From Alphaproteobacteria bacterium UBA1254 (lineage in GTDB: Bacteria; Pseudomonadota; Alphaproteobacteria; RF32; CAG-239): DNA of 64,000 nt. Positions 6,001 through 12,000 of the stretch are shown here, piece by piece; position 1 is the stretch's first letter; each line of letters opens with the position of its first letter. The position numbers are program-made. The stretch covers positions 11,338 through 75,337 of the forward strand of contig DBVW01000021.1 in assembly GCA_002308495.1 (NCBI GenBank), given 5' to 3'.

Positions 6001-9000
6001 ACCTGCCACAAGCCACGGCTCAATTCATTGACCGTCATCACTCTGACAACCCTGACCAAGCCTTTTGTTCTAATAATCTCAAGAGCACGCTTTGCTGTCT
6101 TATCAATAAACGATTGATAAACTGCCGGCGACGACATTTCCTGAAGCATACTGCCCGGCATCCATCGCGCCTCCATTTCTCTGGCATCATTCACAAACGC
6201 GCTTCTAAGAAGCACATATTCGCGAACAAAAACTTCCGTAACCGTTTTTTGATCAACCATATTACCGAGCGGCATAATATCATAAACCTGCTCTTCTTTA
6301 TTTTCAAAAGTAAGCAGAAACGGTTCAATGCGATAAAGCGGCACAAGTTGCGCAATAGCCAAAACCAAAACCAAATTACAGCAAATACTGATTGCTACAA
6401 TTACGGCAAAAGCGCGTGCCGTCCATAAATAACGTTTTTCCGAAGCATTAACGACAACAACCTCTTCACCGGAAGCCGAGCGGTTCGGCCGGCGTTGAGG
6501 TGCACTCGGCCGTTTGCCGATGAGCTTCTGCTGAACATTATTAACGCCTAACTTATCTGCCATTTAATTTTCCTTATATTGATGCCACAAACCAATCCGG
6601 CAGAGTTTTATCAAGCTCTACCTGAATACAAGCACAAGGCGAAAGCTTTAGTTCGTTAACATCTTTACCAACGCCGACCGGTTCCGGTTCATAATATGAC
6701 CCGCAAGCCGAAACGAGCAAAACAGCAAAAAGCAAAATTATTTTCTTACACATTGCAATGTCCTTCTTCATATCAAGACCTATTCATGTTATACTCATTA
6801 TTTTAAAAAGTCTAACATGAACACACTCAAATCCCCAACTTATCAAAAAATTGGAAACCCGTTATAGTCTAACATAATCTTAAAATATTAACATATATTA
6901 AATAAAACAAAAAAGAACACAAATTAGAAAATGAATTTTGTTTATTGGTCGTTCCTGTTCCGAACAGCCCGCCACATAAGCTAAAAAAATGCGGAGAACA
7001 GTGCAGATAGAGTGAAAATAAAGGCGGAAGTACCGGAGCGTACAAAAACATACGTGAGGACACTTCCGACCTGCTATTTTTGCTCTAGATACGCTGTTAT
7101 ACGCATTTTTACAGGATTTCAACTTCGGTTTGCGAATACCTTGTTACAGTAAATCCGAGCGGATTCATTAAACGCCTTCCCATAAAGAGACGTTCGGGCA
7201 CAAAAAAGGCGGTAACGGAAGCTGTCCAATAACGTGTTTTCAAAACCCAGCGTCCGTTTTCCTGCATTGAACCGCGCGACAAATCGTATGTTCTGAAATC
7301 GACTTTCCAAACGGGGCTTTTCTCGCCGCCGACTTTACCGATTGAAATAATTTCCGTATCGCGAACAAGACCGTCCCGAAGAAAATCGTTCAAATGGTCC
7401 ACCGTTTCTTTTTTAAATTTGATAAAAACATTCGGAGCAGACATATAGTTCACAATACCGCCTGCAAACCAGCGTGTCTGCATTTCCTGCTCATCATTTA
7501 AAATCGTATTGCGCATCATCACATATTGTCTGACAAACGTTTCCATCATCTGTTTTGACGAAGCCATATCCGGCGCAATAACCTCATAGCGAACCATTGA
7601 TTCCGAATTATCTTGTTTAATAATCAAAAAAGGCTCAACCGTAACCTGCGGCGCCATCCGAAAAAGAACAAGACTGGCAGAGGCAAAAAACAAAAGCGAA
7701 ATCATACAAAAGAGCATAATAAGTCTTGAAACCCATTGATAATAGGCTTCCTTCAAGCTCTTTAAGCCGATTTCTTCATCTGTGAGATATCTCTGACCTT
7801 CTTTCAAAGGCTTCGCTATCGCAAGTTTTTTCTGCCCGTTTCCTAAAACATCTGCCATCTGTCTTGTTTCCAAACCTTAAAAATATTTTGCACGATAAGG
7901 AACTGCCATCTTCTTTTTATTGTTCTCAAATTCTTTTTGAGCCTCAGCTTCATATTTAGCGACAACATCCTTATCTGCTTTTTTCGTTTTTATTTTGTCT
8001 TCAACTTCCTGTTTTGTTAAATTATCCGAAATCAAAACAAGCTCATCAAAATCTGTCTGCAAAATATCCAGCAAATTCTCAATCTTTTTCTTTCTGTTGA
8101 TTAAGTTTGTATATTCCGGAGCTTCTTCAACAGGTTTGAATTCCGGAAGCTGTTTCAGCAAATTCTGAGCTTCAGATAAAAACATATTCTTTCCGTCATC
8201 CAAACATTTTGCAATAGACTCAAACGTTTCCTTGTCAGCAATATATTCTGCCGAAACAATCTTTGTTTTTGCTTCTCCATACGTGATATATCCTGTTTCT
8301 TTCGGCTTATACGAACAGTCTATCTTGGCTAAAACGTCTTCTATTGACCGACGCCCTTCGTCAACCTTAACTTTAAGCTTAGCCATTGAAAGCTGATACG
8401 TCCGCTCTTGGTCCACAAACTGCAGATAATCGCCGATTTGGTCGCGTCCGAGCATCTTCAGTTCGTTTTCTTTATATTCATCTTCTTTAATCTTTTTCTT
8501 TGATGCTTCATCTTCAGCCGCATGGAAATAACAAATCAATTCGAAAAGCGGATTTGTAAACGTCAAGCCCCCTTCATATTTTAAGAAAACAGACATCTCA
8601 CTGACATAACTGGCAAGCCCGCCGCCTTCACCTTTATCTTCTAAAAAGACTCGGCTCGCATCATCAACATTATTCTGGTTCAAAATATCAACAATATCAA
8701 CATCTCTGTCAATGAACCCGTCCGGTTTCAAAATCGTCTCCCAAATTGCCGGCATATCTTGCCCCGTCTCTAAAAATTCATGACGGGTTGTTTTTGCAAG
8801 GCTCTTAACTTTTCCTTTTTTAGAACACTTACCACCTGTTGTCAAAAGGTTGCCGTAATCGCCATAATCAAAGTGGAAAACCTCTCTGAGCGGCGCAGTT
8901 CTTTTCGGTGTAATCATTTTCGGAACGGTAAAGTCGCGAGCCCGACCTTTAAGGCTGACAAAATAATCTTTATCTTCCTGTTTACATATAGCCCCCTCGC

Positions 9001-12000
9001 AATCTGATTTAAAGATAATCTTATATAACATTTCGGGAGCCTTGCTGATAATGGAAGCATTACTGATAACAAGGTCATCAACCTTAGAAATCGCCGGCAT
9101 AAACGCAACCTTAATCAGATTGTCAAGCATAGCGATATGAATGTTTTTAATCTGTCCGAATTTATCGGGATCATATAAGCCGTAACCCATACCTAAAAGC
9201 CCCTGATAAGCGTTCTGGATCGTCTTAACGCCGGCTTCTCTGAATATGTTCACCATATTTTTACCCTCGCCGAATGCGAACATAAGCGTCGCATGACCCG
9301 GGACAGGCTCAAATGAAATAGCCGAAGCCGATCTGTTTTCAAGCGCTATTTTCATTGTCAATATATGCGCATTTTCCATTTCAACGGCTTCTGCAATATA
9401 ATCTTCTCGAGCATCTTCAATTTTTTGATCGAGGGCAACAACCTGTTTTCTTAAATCGTCAATAGTGTCTTGCAGTTCTTCAACCCCTTCAAGAGCCTTT
9501 TTAAGCGCTGCCTCAACCTTTTCTAATTCCTGTTCTTTCTTACTGATAATATTTTCTGCTTTTTCCTGCATACCGCTCTCATAAGACATTCCGGGATATT
9601 CGTTTTTCTTCGCTTTAGCCAAATCTCTTGACTGTTTTTGCATTTCAATAGAAGATTCGAGTGATTTCTTTTGATCTGCTAAACGGTTATATTCCGCTTT
9701 TTTCGCATCAAGCTTAATTGTCTCATCTTCAATCTCTTCGTTAACGGTTACCTTTTGCTTTTCAAGAGCTGCGATGTTTGCCTTAAAAGAGCTGATCAGA
9801 TTTGCCATCTCTTTATCTTGCGTTTCTTTCAAATCCCGAAGCGAAGAATCTTTCTCCATGGCTTCCAATTTAGCAGCGAATTTCTTTGCCGCATCGGCAA
9901 TTTTGCCTCTGTTTTCCGCTTTAATATTCGCCAGTTTTTCATTAAACTCTTGGCTGACTTTGTTATAAGTCGCTTCTTTAATATTCGGATATATTTGTGC
10001 TCTGTAAGCCTCTATTTTAGCATATCTGTATGGATCATCCGCTGCCAAACTCGCTGCGTATGCCGCAACTTTGCTGTTAACGGCAGACTTTGTTTCCGAC
10101 TCAACCTTTTTTTGAAGCTTTTCTTCATCAATTGTCATTGCTTCGTTCATTTCGCCTGCAATAGCAGCAATTGCCTCTTCAAGAACGCCCGATTCGAAAT
10201 AAATCATCATATTTCTGTATTTTTCTCTTAAATACTGATCGTAGAAATGTCTTTCATCATTCCAAACCTTATATTTCACTTTAGCAAAGCCGAATTTTTT
10301 GCCGCCGCTTTGCATATCTTCGCCGATTTCAATTGATTTTTGGCGTCCGATTTGCCAACGGTTCAAATTCTGCTCGCGCGTTCCGCCTTCGGCCTCAGCC
10401 TCGTTTGACGGCTTTGAAAGCGTATCGGAATCTTTTACATAATTCTTAACATCAGGGTCTGAATCCATATCAGGCGTTTCCGTGCTTTGGTCCATATTAA
10501 CTTCTGTTTTGCCCATCACCTTGTCATACTTGTCCACCGCGGCATCAGGGTCGCTTGTATCCACACTTTCAAGATCCATAACCTTCTTGGCTTTTGCAAG
10601 CTGATATTCGCGAATGCTTTCTCCCGAAAGAGAATCAATCGGTTTTTTCTCATACGCCGTCACATCAAAAGAGCCGCTCGGGCAAGTAATGTAATGATAC
10701 ACATAATCATCATACTCATTTTTATTATTGCAACCCATTATTTTCTGACACATATAGCCTATTTGATTACCTCCCAACCTGCAGCTATCTCCAAACCAAA
10801 TATCATCTGCATTCGAAGATTCGTAGTAATCTGACAAATAGCTTCTGACAAATTGTTCTGACTGGGCAAGCCTCTCAATGGCCACATAATGAAGTATTCT
10901 CATCTTTTCATATTCAATAAACGGCTTTCTTAAATCAGGCAGTTGTTGCTTGGTGTTGTGCATTTCTTCGGCCAAACTCAAAAGTTCGTATGTTCCATTT
11001 AAAATCGCAAGCGAATTAATAAGCTCTTCCGAACCGGCAAAAGGCGGTTTTTCCTTATATTCTTCGGTTTGAACAAGCGTCAAATTCGGATTAACTTTCG
11101 GCGCGCTTCTTGTCCCTTCAACCTTTGCCACAAAATCACCGGCCTGTTGAGCATATCCCATCGGCGAACTGCTGTTATAATAAAAACTTGTCGTCTGCGT
11201 ATCTTCTTCGCCGACCCCCGCATCATCATTAACCGGGCGCACACCTTCTCTCAAAGAATTGCCGGCCTGATATTGCGCTTCCATGGCCATCAATTCTTCA
11301 TAAACTCTCATCATCGAATCTTGCATCGCCTGAAGCTTATAACCATTCACCCAGTTACCGAGTTCTTCATCAGATGCCGAAGCCATTTCGCATGAAGCAG
11401 AAAGTCCCTCTCGCCCTTCGACGAAACACTCCGACAAACTGTCAACTTCGCCTTTAATGAAAGAAAGGCGATCATCTTCCAACTGCCGAGCCGAGACATA
11501 AACTTCAATCATATTATCGTATGCAAATTCGGCGCGTTTCTTCTCATATTGATTTTTAACAAACGACCTGTAATCAACCGGAAAACTCTCCAAAAGCTTT
11601 GGATCATCTTTCAAAAACAGCTTTTGAAATCCTTCCGAAACAGAGGCGGCATCAGCAATATTCGCAACTTCCGAGGGCACAATATCTTTTGCCGTCGCAA
11701 TAACCGGAAAATTAACTTCTTTTTTAAGCGGCGATTCACTAAAATCAAGCGCCATATATTTCTTCGCCGTTTTAATCACATTAAGCGCTTTGTCTTGAGC
11801 ATACTGCAAATCATCGACAACAACGCGAGCTTTTTTCAAAAGAGCCTTAGCGGTCTCAATAACATCATTAACCCCGTCGAAAGAAGGACAAATCGGGCAA
11901 GGCGGCCACAAAACGGCACTGCTTTCCGTCGCATAAAAAAGAAACGCTAAAAAAGCAAATTTATACATATTCTTTCTCATCATAATCAGTCTCCTTCACG

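Follow-up and report, generated by a model that had tools for sequence, protein, structure and literature searches.

A 64,000-nucleotide (nt) stretch of contig DBVW01000021.1 from Alphaproteobacteria bacterium UBA1254 (hereafter the window) carries one long minus-strand operon for a type IV secretion system (T4SS). In the VirB5/VirB6 interval of its virB order lies a gene encoding a protein of 1368 amino acids (aa), which we call the giant. Its conserved features showed it to be a predicted exported, disulfide-stabilised, extracytoplasmic, non-membrane protein and a fixed part of the T4SS gene set. Moreover, by homology searches it is the founder of a large undescribed family linked to a distinctive T4SS of uncultured Alphaproteobacteria. 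As to its role, we lean, tentatively and with slightly less than even confidence, towards a dedicated subunit, structural or contact-making, that works outside the cytoplasm with the VirB5 stalk/tip module of this chromosomal VirB-type T4SS. The system is so far known only from uncultured Alphaproteobacteria, and the loci retrieved from a genome collection belong to metagenome-assembled genomes (MAGs), mostly ruminant.

Reading frame, export and paired cysteines

The open reading frame (ORF) of the giant, at 7877..11983 on the minus strand, ran uninterrupted from its ATG through 1368 codons. By arithmetic, an open frame of this length has a chance of ~ 1e-37 at ~ 41% GC, where ~ 6% of random codons are stops. 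A preliminary description of this DNA had asked whether the frame was interrupted, as in a pseudogene; we found it intact. The same description proposed translational coupling on both sides. The upstream junction is indeed tight: the TGA stop of the preceding gene (11988-11986) is followed by TT and then by the ATG at 11983 (2-nt gap), with the Shine-Dalgarno sequence GAAGGAG (11996-11990) inside the end of the upstream gene. The downstream junction is looser than proposed, as the VirB8 gene probably starts not at TTG 7873 but at ATG 7858 (MADVLGNGQKK..., 249 aa), leaving a gap of ~ 18 nt. We prefer this start because it matches the gene call in the identical contig (locus L001) and the N-termini of homologs.

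The N-terminus of the giant, MMRKNMYKFAFLAFLFYATESSA followed by VLW, has the n/h/c layout of a Sec-type signal peptide. Signal peptides were likewise found in 12/12 close homologs, and also in distant members. Past the signal peptide, the highest 19-residue Kyte-Doolittle window scored 1.33 and none reached 1.6, in line with the earlier statement that the protein has no transmembrane (TM) helices; the homologs also lacked a TM segment beyond the signal peptide. We rejected a lipoprotein identity, as no lipobox precedes C29, and an outer-membrane β-barrel, despite the C-terminal Y-F, as the preceding 150 residues form a K/E-rich helix.

The cysteine motifs quoted in the preliminary description were all found, namely PPCPICP (residues 27-33), CRLGGNQIGYMCQKIMGC (401-418) and CEGAIC (995-1000). 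However, the term cysteine-rich overstated the case, with 14 Cys in 1368 aa (1.0%). Eight of the 14 (186/198, 401/412/418/434 and 1223/1260) were invariant in 12/12 close homologs. Across the same homologs, the pairs 29/32 and 1053/1151 were either both present or both absent, and the pair 995/1000 co-occurred likewise save in one homolog (P0010, where the alignment is ambiguous). Invariance, or the joint gain and loss of two cysteines, is the pattern of disulfide partners, from which about seven disulfides can be predicted. Together with the universal signal peptide, these predicted disulfides would place the protein in the periplasm or beyond.

The protein was divided into the following parts, all on the minus strand:

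11915..11983, minus strand: Sec signal peptide, residues 1-23.
11198..11914, minus strand: N1 module, residues 24-262, opening with PPCPICPSFDGVND; three long predicted helices and a C186/C198 loop; weakly VirB5-like.
11048..11197, minus strand: variable linker, residues 263-312; alignment without consensus, pLDDT 25-38.
10574..11047, minus strand: N2 module, residues 313-470; helical hairpin and β-hairpins with the invariant Cys quartet 401/412/418/434.
10394..10573, minus strand: acidic variable linker, residues 471-530; 20% Asp.
10109..10393, minus strand: N3 module, residues 531-625; conserved motifs REQNLNRWQIG and W.DEK.FY.QYL.EKY.N.
9329..10108, minus strand: K/E/A-rich helical (coiled-coil-like) spacer, residues 626-885; conserved break near 795-803 (DPSY.SG).
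7880..9328, minus strand: conserved C-terminal domain, residues 886-1368; Cys pairs 995/1000, 1053/1151 and 1223/1260.
7880..7900, minus strand: extreme C-terminal motif PYRAKYF, with the family form P-Y-[C/R/L]-A-x-Y(-F)-COOH.

AlphaFold2 was run on two halves of the giant, with alignments of 12-13 sequences. Both halves were of low confidence (predicted local distance difference test, pLDDT, 52.8 and 51.0) and the predicted secondary structure was mostly helical; only the Cys-quartet subdomain (residues 353-473) rose above this, with pLDDT of 63-86. Foldseek searches with these low-confidence models, too poor to judge a β-helix or adhesin fold by, gave nothing below E 0.1. The secondary structure assigned to N1 comes from the same low-confidence model, and P28, D36 and N39 of this module are invariant in the homolog alignment. 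The N3 motifs were also kept in the distant homolog P0013.

The Lys/Glu coiled-coil middle noted earlier was evident in residues 626-885, which are K/E-rich with strong heptad-like periodicity (13.8% K, 13.8% E, 14.6% A, 1.5% G, 1.2% P and 0% C). The spacer measured 236-280 aa in the 12 close homologs, as judged from segment lengths, and its sequence was poorly conserved. A steady length combined with a drifting sequence suits a structural arm better than a region engaged in catalysis or binding. The mean column identity of the C-terminal domain was 55%.

In four homologs only (P0005-P0008), the acidic linker carries an inserted β-flower/DUF3659 repeat, identified by Pfam matches. The repeat lies at the equivalent of ~ 10394-10573 in the window and is the same module that builds the giants on the VirB10 side of the cluster. 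This common module suggests an exchange of repeats between T4SS components.

The T4SS gene cluster and the family of the giant

The genes of the operon, from the pilin genes onwards, were assigned as follows:

19877-20263, 19420-19776 and 18090-19400, minus strand: three VirB2/TrbC pilin paralogs (128, 118 and 436 aa); PF04956.
17779..18069, minus strand: VirB3-like protein (96 aa), assigned by position and TM segment; no family match.
15357..17789, minus strand: VirB4 ATPase; TIGR00929, E 1.9e-107.
13948..15279, minus strand: exported helical protein A (443 aa), with signal peptide, mature N-terminus TGFPTFD and a VirB5-like N-terminus.
13214..13951, minus strand: exported helical protein B (245 aa), a paralog of A and C.
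11986..13263, minus strand: exported protein C (425 aa in the ORF list, 411 aa in the L001 call), with a VirB5-like C-terminal part.
7877..11983, minus strand: the giant (1368 aa), between C and VirB8.
7109..7858, minus strand: VirB8 paralog 1; PF04335, E 3e-14; probable start ATG 7858.
6574..6771, minus strand: VirB7-like lipoprotein (65 aa) with lipobox LLVSAC and motif LKLSPCAC.
5826..6563, minus strand: VirB8 paralog 2; PF04335, E 2.4e-21.
4182..5816, minus strand: VirB9/CagX with a C-terminal SPOR (peptidoglycan-binding) domain.
2..4168, minus strand: giant bitopic protein (> 1389 aa) extending past the window start, with an N-terminal TM segment and 13 β-flower (PF21785/PF21784/DUF3659) repeats; VirB10 side.

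The giant was encoded directly 5' of VirB8 in 9/9 loci showing the downstream side. The complete order was VirB2 (three copies), VirB3, VirB4, at least three exported, TM-less VirB5-like paralogs, the giant, VirB8, VirB7, VirB8, VirB9, a giant TM protein, VirB10 with β-flower repeats, and VirB11. The same order was found at 100%, 41%, 34% and 24% identity and with two distant representatives (L001-L004, L012, L014 and L015). The small lipoprotein gene between the two VirB8 genes was also present in L002, L004, L014 and L015, and a 96-aa gene with a near-identical N-terminus stood at the VirB3 position in all relatives seen, that of L015 being more divergent. It is scarcely credible that the giant is exported for some purpose unconnected with the T4SS and lies in the operon by chance. 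Its link to the T4SS does rest on gene context and sequence; nevertheless, it lay between the VirB5-like genes and VirB8 in every two-sided locus (about nine). Signal peptide, paired conserved cysteines and fixed synteny thus bear out the earlier description of an exported, non-membrane-spanning and T4SS-dedicated protein.

Two further features of the cluster concern its other components. The third VirB2/TrbC paralog (18090-19400) is fused to a Gly/Ser/Thr-rich, Cys-containing C-terminal extension of ~ 340 aa, and its versions in relatives measure 450-613 aa. The VirB10 side of the relatives holds two giants, a TM protein of 1100-2370 aa and a VirB10 of ~ 1400-1510 aa with β-flower repeats and TrbI, an arrangement that recalls the repeat-laden CagY.

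A word-indexed homology search, with the single protein and then with a profile, returned just 13 clusters, and the real family was revealed by an exhaustive HMMER profile search. The former gave 12 full-length homologs (34-100% identity, 1318-1430 aa) and one distant protein of 1839 aa; these 13 relatives were all unnamed or "hypothetical" and came from MAGs labelled Alphaproteobacteria. The exhaustive search with the N-domain profile gave at least 222 representatives (clusters at 50% identity) at E ≤ 1e-3, 197 of them at ≤ 1e-10. Nearly all of the 222 were 1200-2000 aa long with the matched domain N-terminal, and an informative name was found for 0/10 family clusters looked up. The C-terminal domain was also present in 135 of the 157 representatives examined, with a median N-to-C spacer of 258 aa (n = 135), and many of those examined terminate in P-Y-[C/R/L]-A-x-Y(-F). 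In a collection of species-representative genomes we found nine loci, all from uncultured Alphaproteobacteria, and for seven of these the MAG is explicitly of reindeer, roe deer, yak, goat or cattle-type rumen origin. The family merits a Pfam entry. In UBA3773 (L012, 10007-14585) the giant is split into ORFs of 264 and 1264 aa, for which a frameshift, a pseudogene or an assembly error is possible.

Known families offered no match. The whole protein had no hit in Pfam (E ≤ 0.01), NCBIfam or PHROGs; the N- and C-domains of 12-13 members matched nothing consistently in Pfam even at E ≤ 1; and sequence searches of the PDB with the giant and with two profiles matched no solved structure. Homology to a cytoplasmic enzyme, raised in the preliminary description as evidence against an exported component, was thus not seen in any of these searches, and no enzymatic or toxin domain appeared in any member scanned against the family libraries. 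Narrow and broad hidden Markov models (HMMs) of the giant gave nothing significant against plasmid T4SS loci, and against all ORFs of the related loci, where paralogs within the operon were sought, nothing below E 5e-4.

The F-plasmid protein TraN had been offered as an analogy. Both TraN and the giant are exported, T4SS-associated and provided with conserved cysteines. However, we rejected a TraN identity: no TraN match appeared in Pfam even at E ≤ 1, the gene context (VirB2/3/4/8/9/10/11) is of the VirB/P-type and not of the F-type, and the mostly helical prediction also sets the giant apart. With 14 Cys, eight of them invariant, its 1.0% Cys content is far below the Cys density of TraN. What may survive of the adhesin/TraN proposal is an exported, T4SS-dedicated, contact-making protein; its details found no support in our sequence comparisons.

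The preliminary description also placed the giant in the slot normally taken by VirB6, and its position between the VirB4/VirB5-like genes and VirB8, in a cluster with no polytopic VirB6, agrees with this. No polytopic VirB6/TrbL-like protein was found anywhere in the 64-kb window, and the clusters of the related loci examined also lacked one. A VirB6/TrbL identity for the giant itself was rejected, since it has neither the polytopic topology nor a TrbL/VirB6 profile match, and position alone agrees.

VirD4, a relaxase and VirB6 were all missing from the cluster. This statement applies to the cluster and not to whole genomes; the window is cut before VirB10 ends, and the downstream end was read in L016 and L018, where VirB10 and VirB11 are followed by unrelated genes (GAPDH and PGK in one, opposite-strand genes in the other). 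Elsewhere the window carries chromosomal housekeeping genes (AddAB, Ham1, ATP synthase subunit a, FtsK, PlsY and transketolase). The label "mating-pair formation" is doubtful for a chromosomal cluster that lacks VirD4 and a relaxase. In gene content and surroundings the system resembles the VirD4-less Ptl, Brucella VirB, ComB and Bartonella Trw systems more than a machine for conjugation.

In a system of this kind, the giant might be a Sec-dependent cargo of the T4SS (a toxin, an adhesin or a surface coat) that reaches the periplasm first and then leaves the cell, in two steps as pertussis toxin does through Ptl. Two-step secretion has been described for the VirD4-less Ptl and Brucella systems (PMC12857230). 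The missing VirD4 makes a periplasmic substrate route plausible for the cluster, the giant has the signal peptide and predicted disulfides of such a substrate, and it is a large protein of several modules whose variable linkers tolerate repeat insertions. Nevertheless, we consider a cargo unlikely. The gene holds a fixed place among structural genes of the core operon, with junctions of 2 and ~ 18 nt, its architecture is kept down to 24% identity, and neither an enzymatic nor a toxin domain came up in the scans of the members. As a rule, effectors vary more and show looser linkage.

Possible relation to VirB5 and proposed place of the giant in the machine

We compared the giant and its upstream neighbours A, B and C with VirB5 by profile-profile alignment (hhalign), using 44 PF07996 VirB5 sequences gathered from the 251-aa PF07996 VirB5 of Erythrobacter. 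Signal peptides were removed, as untrimmed profiles inflated the VirB5 likeness of A and B (95% and 74%, against 29% and < 1% after trimming); only trimmed values were used. Neighbour C gave the clearest match (75%, P 2.6e-5), and its HMM matched the Erythrobacter PF07996 VirB5 at E 1e-6 and that of Microvirga at 3.6e-4. Neighbour A reached P 6e-4. The three neighbours were also interrelated (A-B 74%, B-C 54%). Neighbour A contains near-perfect tandem helical repeats (VKDQVDNTKSQIENTVQG twice, plus variants); its weak matches to phage tape-measure proteins and apolipoproteins look compositional, and a tblastn search with it against plasmids gave no match.

The N-terminal 240 aa of the giant aligned with VirB5 at Prob 33-44% (P 2.4e-4 to 6e-4) over about 70-155 columns, whereas its reversed-sequence controls gave P 0.17-0.19. 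In one alignment the register held from the very start of the mature protein (P-S-F-D against P-V-I-D). With the broad N-domain HMMER profile, two VirB5 genes were the top two of 766 plasmid ORFs, at E 0.023 and 0.18. The resemblance extends to other features of the VirB5/TrbJ/TraC family (PF07996). Both proteins are Sec-exported, helical, TM-less and encoded after VirB4, the mature N-terminal P-x-x-D of the giant aligns with IPV.D of VirB5, and the three genes just 5' of the giant encode VirB5-like paralogs. On the other hand, the giant is six times longer, with a coiled-coil-like spacer of ~ 260 aa and a 480-aa C-terminal domain without known relative. The VirB5 link of the giant is weak, a lead from profile comparison and not a result.

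In published models, VirB5 sits on a stalk atop VirB6 and later at the pilus tip (PMC12857230). If the giant belongs to this stalk/pilus-tip module, its N-terminal three-helix part would dock it among the VirB5-like paralogs, and the coiled-coil-like spacer of ~ 260 residues could act as a rigid arm that sets a distance. The C-terminal domain with its aromatic motif would then be the working end, touching either the outer-membrane core (the VirB9/VirB10 giants) or a target-cell surface.

Several points weigh against such a placement. Reversed controls of other helical families reach P 0.002, so that a value of ~ 3e-4 is only about tenfold better than noise, and the Pfam PF07996 model does not match the giant. 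The structural models (pLDDT 52.8 and 51.0) are too poor, and the Foldseek searches too empty, to give fold-level support to any part of the mechanism. We must also note that the place of the giant in the machine and its reach to the cell surface are read from sequence, and that these genomes could carry VirB6 and VirD4 genes outside the cluster.

A somewhat unlikely, though more than marginal, alternative is a lineage-specific periplasmic scaffold or outer-membrane-core accessory unrelated to VirB5, comparable to CagM/Cag3 of the Helicobacter Cag system, or else a soluble stand-in for VirB6. The VirB5 similarity is below any safe threshold, the giant occupies the VirB6 slot of a cluster without a polytopic VirB6, and the conserved aromatic C-terminal motif could be a docking peptide. 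Moreover, the system is expanded (a giant VirB10, a second giant and VirB9 with SPOR), as are those in which extra ring components exist. Against this, a protein without TM helices cannot do what VirB6 does in the inner membrane, and the searches showed no likeness to a ring component of solved structure. Moreover, the gene of the giant closes a series of VirB5-like genes, a position that favours common ancestry with these.

A bolder version of the proposed VirB5-module role, which we regard as quite improbable, is a machine that dispenses with VirB6 and VirD4 altogether. Its stalk or channel would be made of exported, soluble, VirB5-derived paralogs capped by the giant, with a coiled coil of fixed length spanning an enlarged periplasmic/outer-membrane assembly and the C-terminal domain as a distal contact or gate. 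In current structural models, every Gram-negative T4SS is centred on a VirB6 pentamer that carries VirB5 (PMC12857230). If VirB6 is truly absent from these genomes, they would hold another way to build a T4SS stalk or pilus base. If VirB6 is merely encoded elsewhere, the giant still stands for an uncharacterised family of considerable size (50%-identity clusters, at least 222) and would remain the foremost candidate for the component in contact with a partner cell. The cluster is conserved, chromosomal and widespread in metagenomes, and its hosts are poorly known gut and rumen bacteria.

Related secretion systems and the surrounding genes

The nearest functional analogy of this T4SS, as far as gene content can suggest one, is the Trw system of Bartonella. 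Trw is VirD4-less with amplified VirB2 and VirB5 genes, for which variable adhesive pili have been proposed (PMC12857230). The cluster described here is likewise chromosomal, has no VirD4 and includes several VirB2 and VirB5-like paralogs. It differs in that Trw has no counterpart of the giant, of the duplicated VirB8 or of the β-flower VirB10. A further difference is the VirB6 missing from our cluster, which Trw retains as TrwI.

The Rickettsiales vir homolog (rvh) system is also alphaproteobacterial and chromosomal, and shares with our cluster a duplicated VirB8 with a small VirB7-like gene in between and non-canonical genes in the VirB4-VirB8 interval. However, its hallmarks are a multicopy VirB6 and the lack of a VirB5 analog (PMC11077975), whereas our cluster has no VirB6 and several VirB5-like genes, together with one VirB4 and one VirB9. 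Membership in rvh was rejected, as these hallmarks are reversed here, although the VirB8 duplication is common to both.

The nearest VirB4 proteins in the plasmid collection (34-37% identity) belong to conjugative plasmids of Microvirga, Sphingosinicella and Erythrobacter. The plasmid order is VirB4, VirB5, a second longer VirB5-like protein, a VirB7 lipoprotein, one VirB8, VirB9, VirB10, VirB11 and VirD4, with a MobA/MobL relaxase 5' of the pilin gene; a 228-aa protein with three TM segments follows VirB5 in the Microvirga plasmid only. Microvirga pMVF16-3 and the Erythrobacter aureus plasmid share with our cluster the gene-order backbone and a second VirB5-like gene (428 and 453 aa, respectively) before VirB7. 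They differ by their relaxase, VirD4, single VirB8 and normal-sized VirB10, and have no homolog of the giant. The VirB7 motif ...LK.SPCAC... is common to the gut/rumen MAG clusters and the plasmids (L019, 21511-21687; L020, 20989-21195). In the Erythrobacter aureus plasmid (L020, 18496-21908), no polytopic protein is encoded between VirB4 and VirB8, where we found just VirB5, the 453-aa VirB5-like protein and VirB7. Judging from this plasmid locus, the loss of VirB6 from its usual slot may predate the gut lineage.

An Rfam scan of the window gave no family at gathering score. A 554-aa acidic protein without family (20653-22317) separates the T4SS operon from a divergently oriented locus resembling that of a type IVb pilus (22379-30958, plus strand), which encodes TcpQ, a secretin, an R64-type PilO, a T2SSE ATPase and a T2SSF platform protein. 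The GC skew of the plus strand is strongly negative (−0.15 to −0.35) over the minus-strand genes and near zero at this plus-strand pilus locus (22-30 kb).

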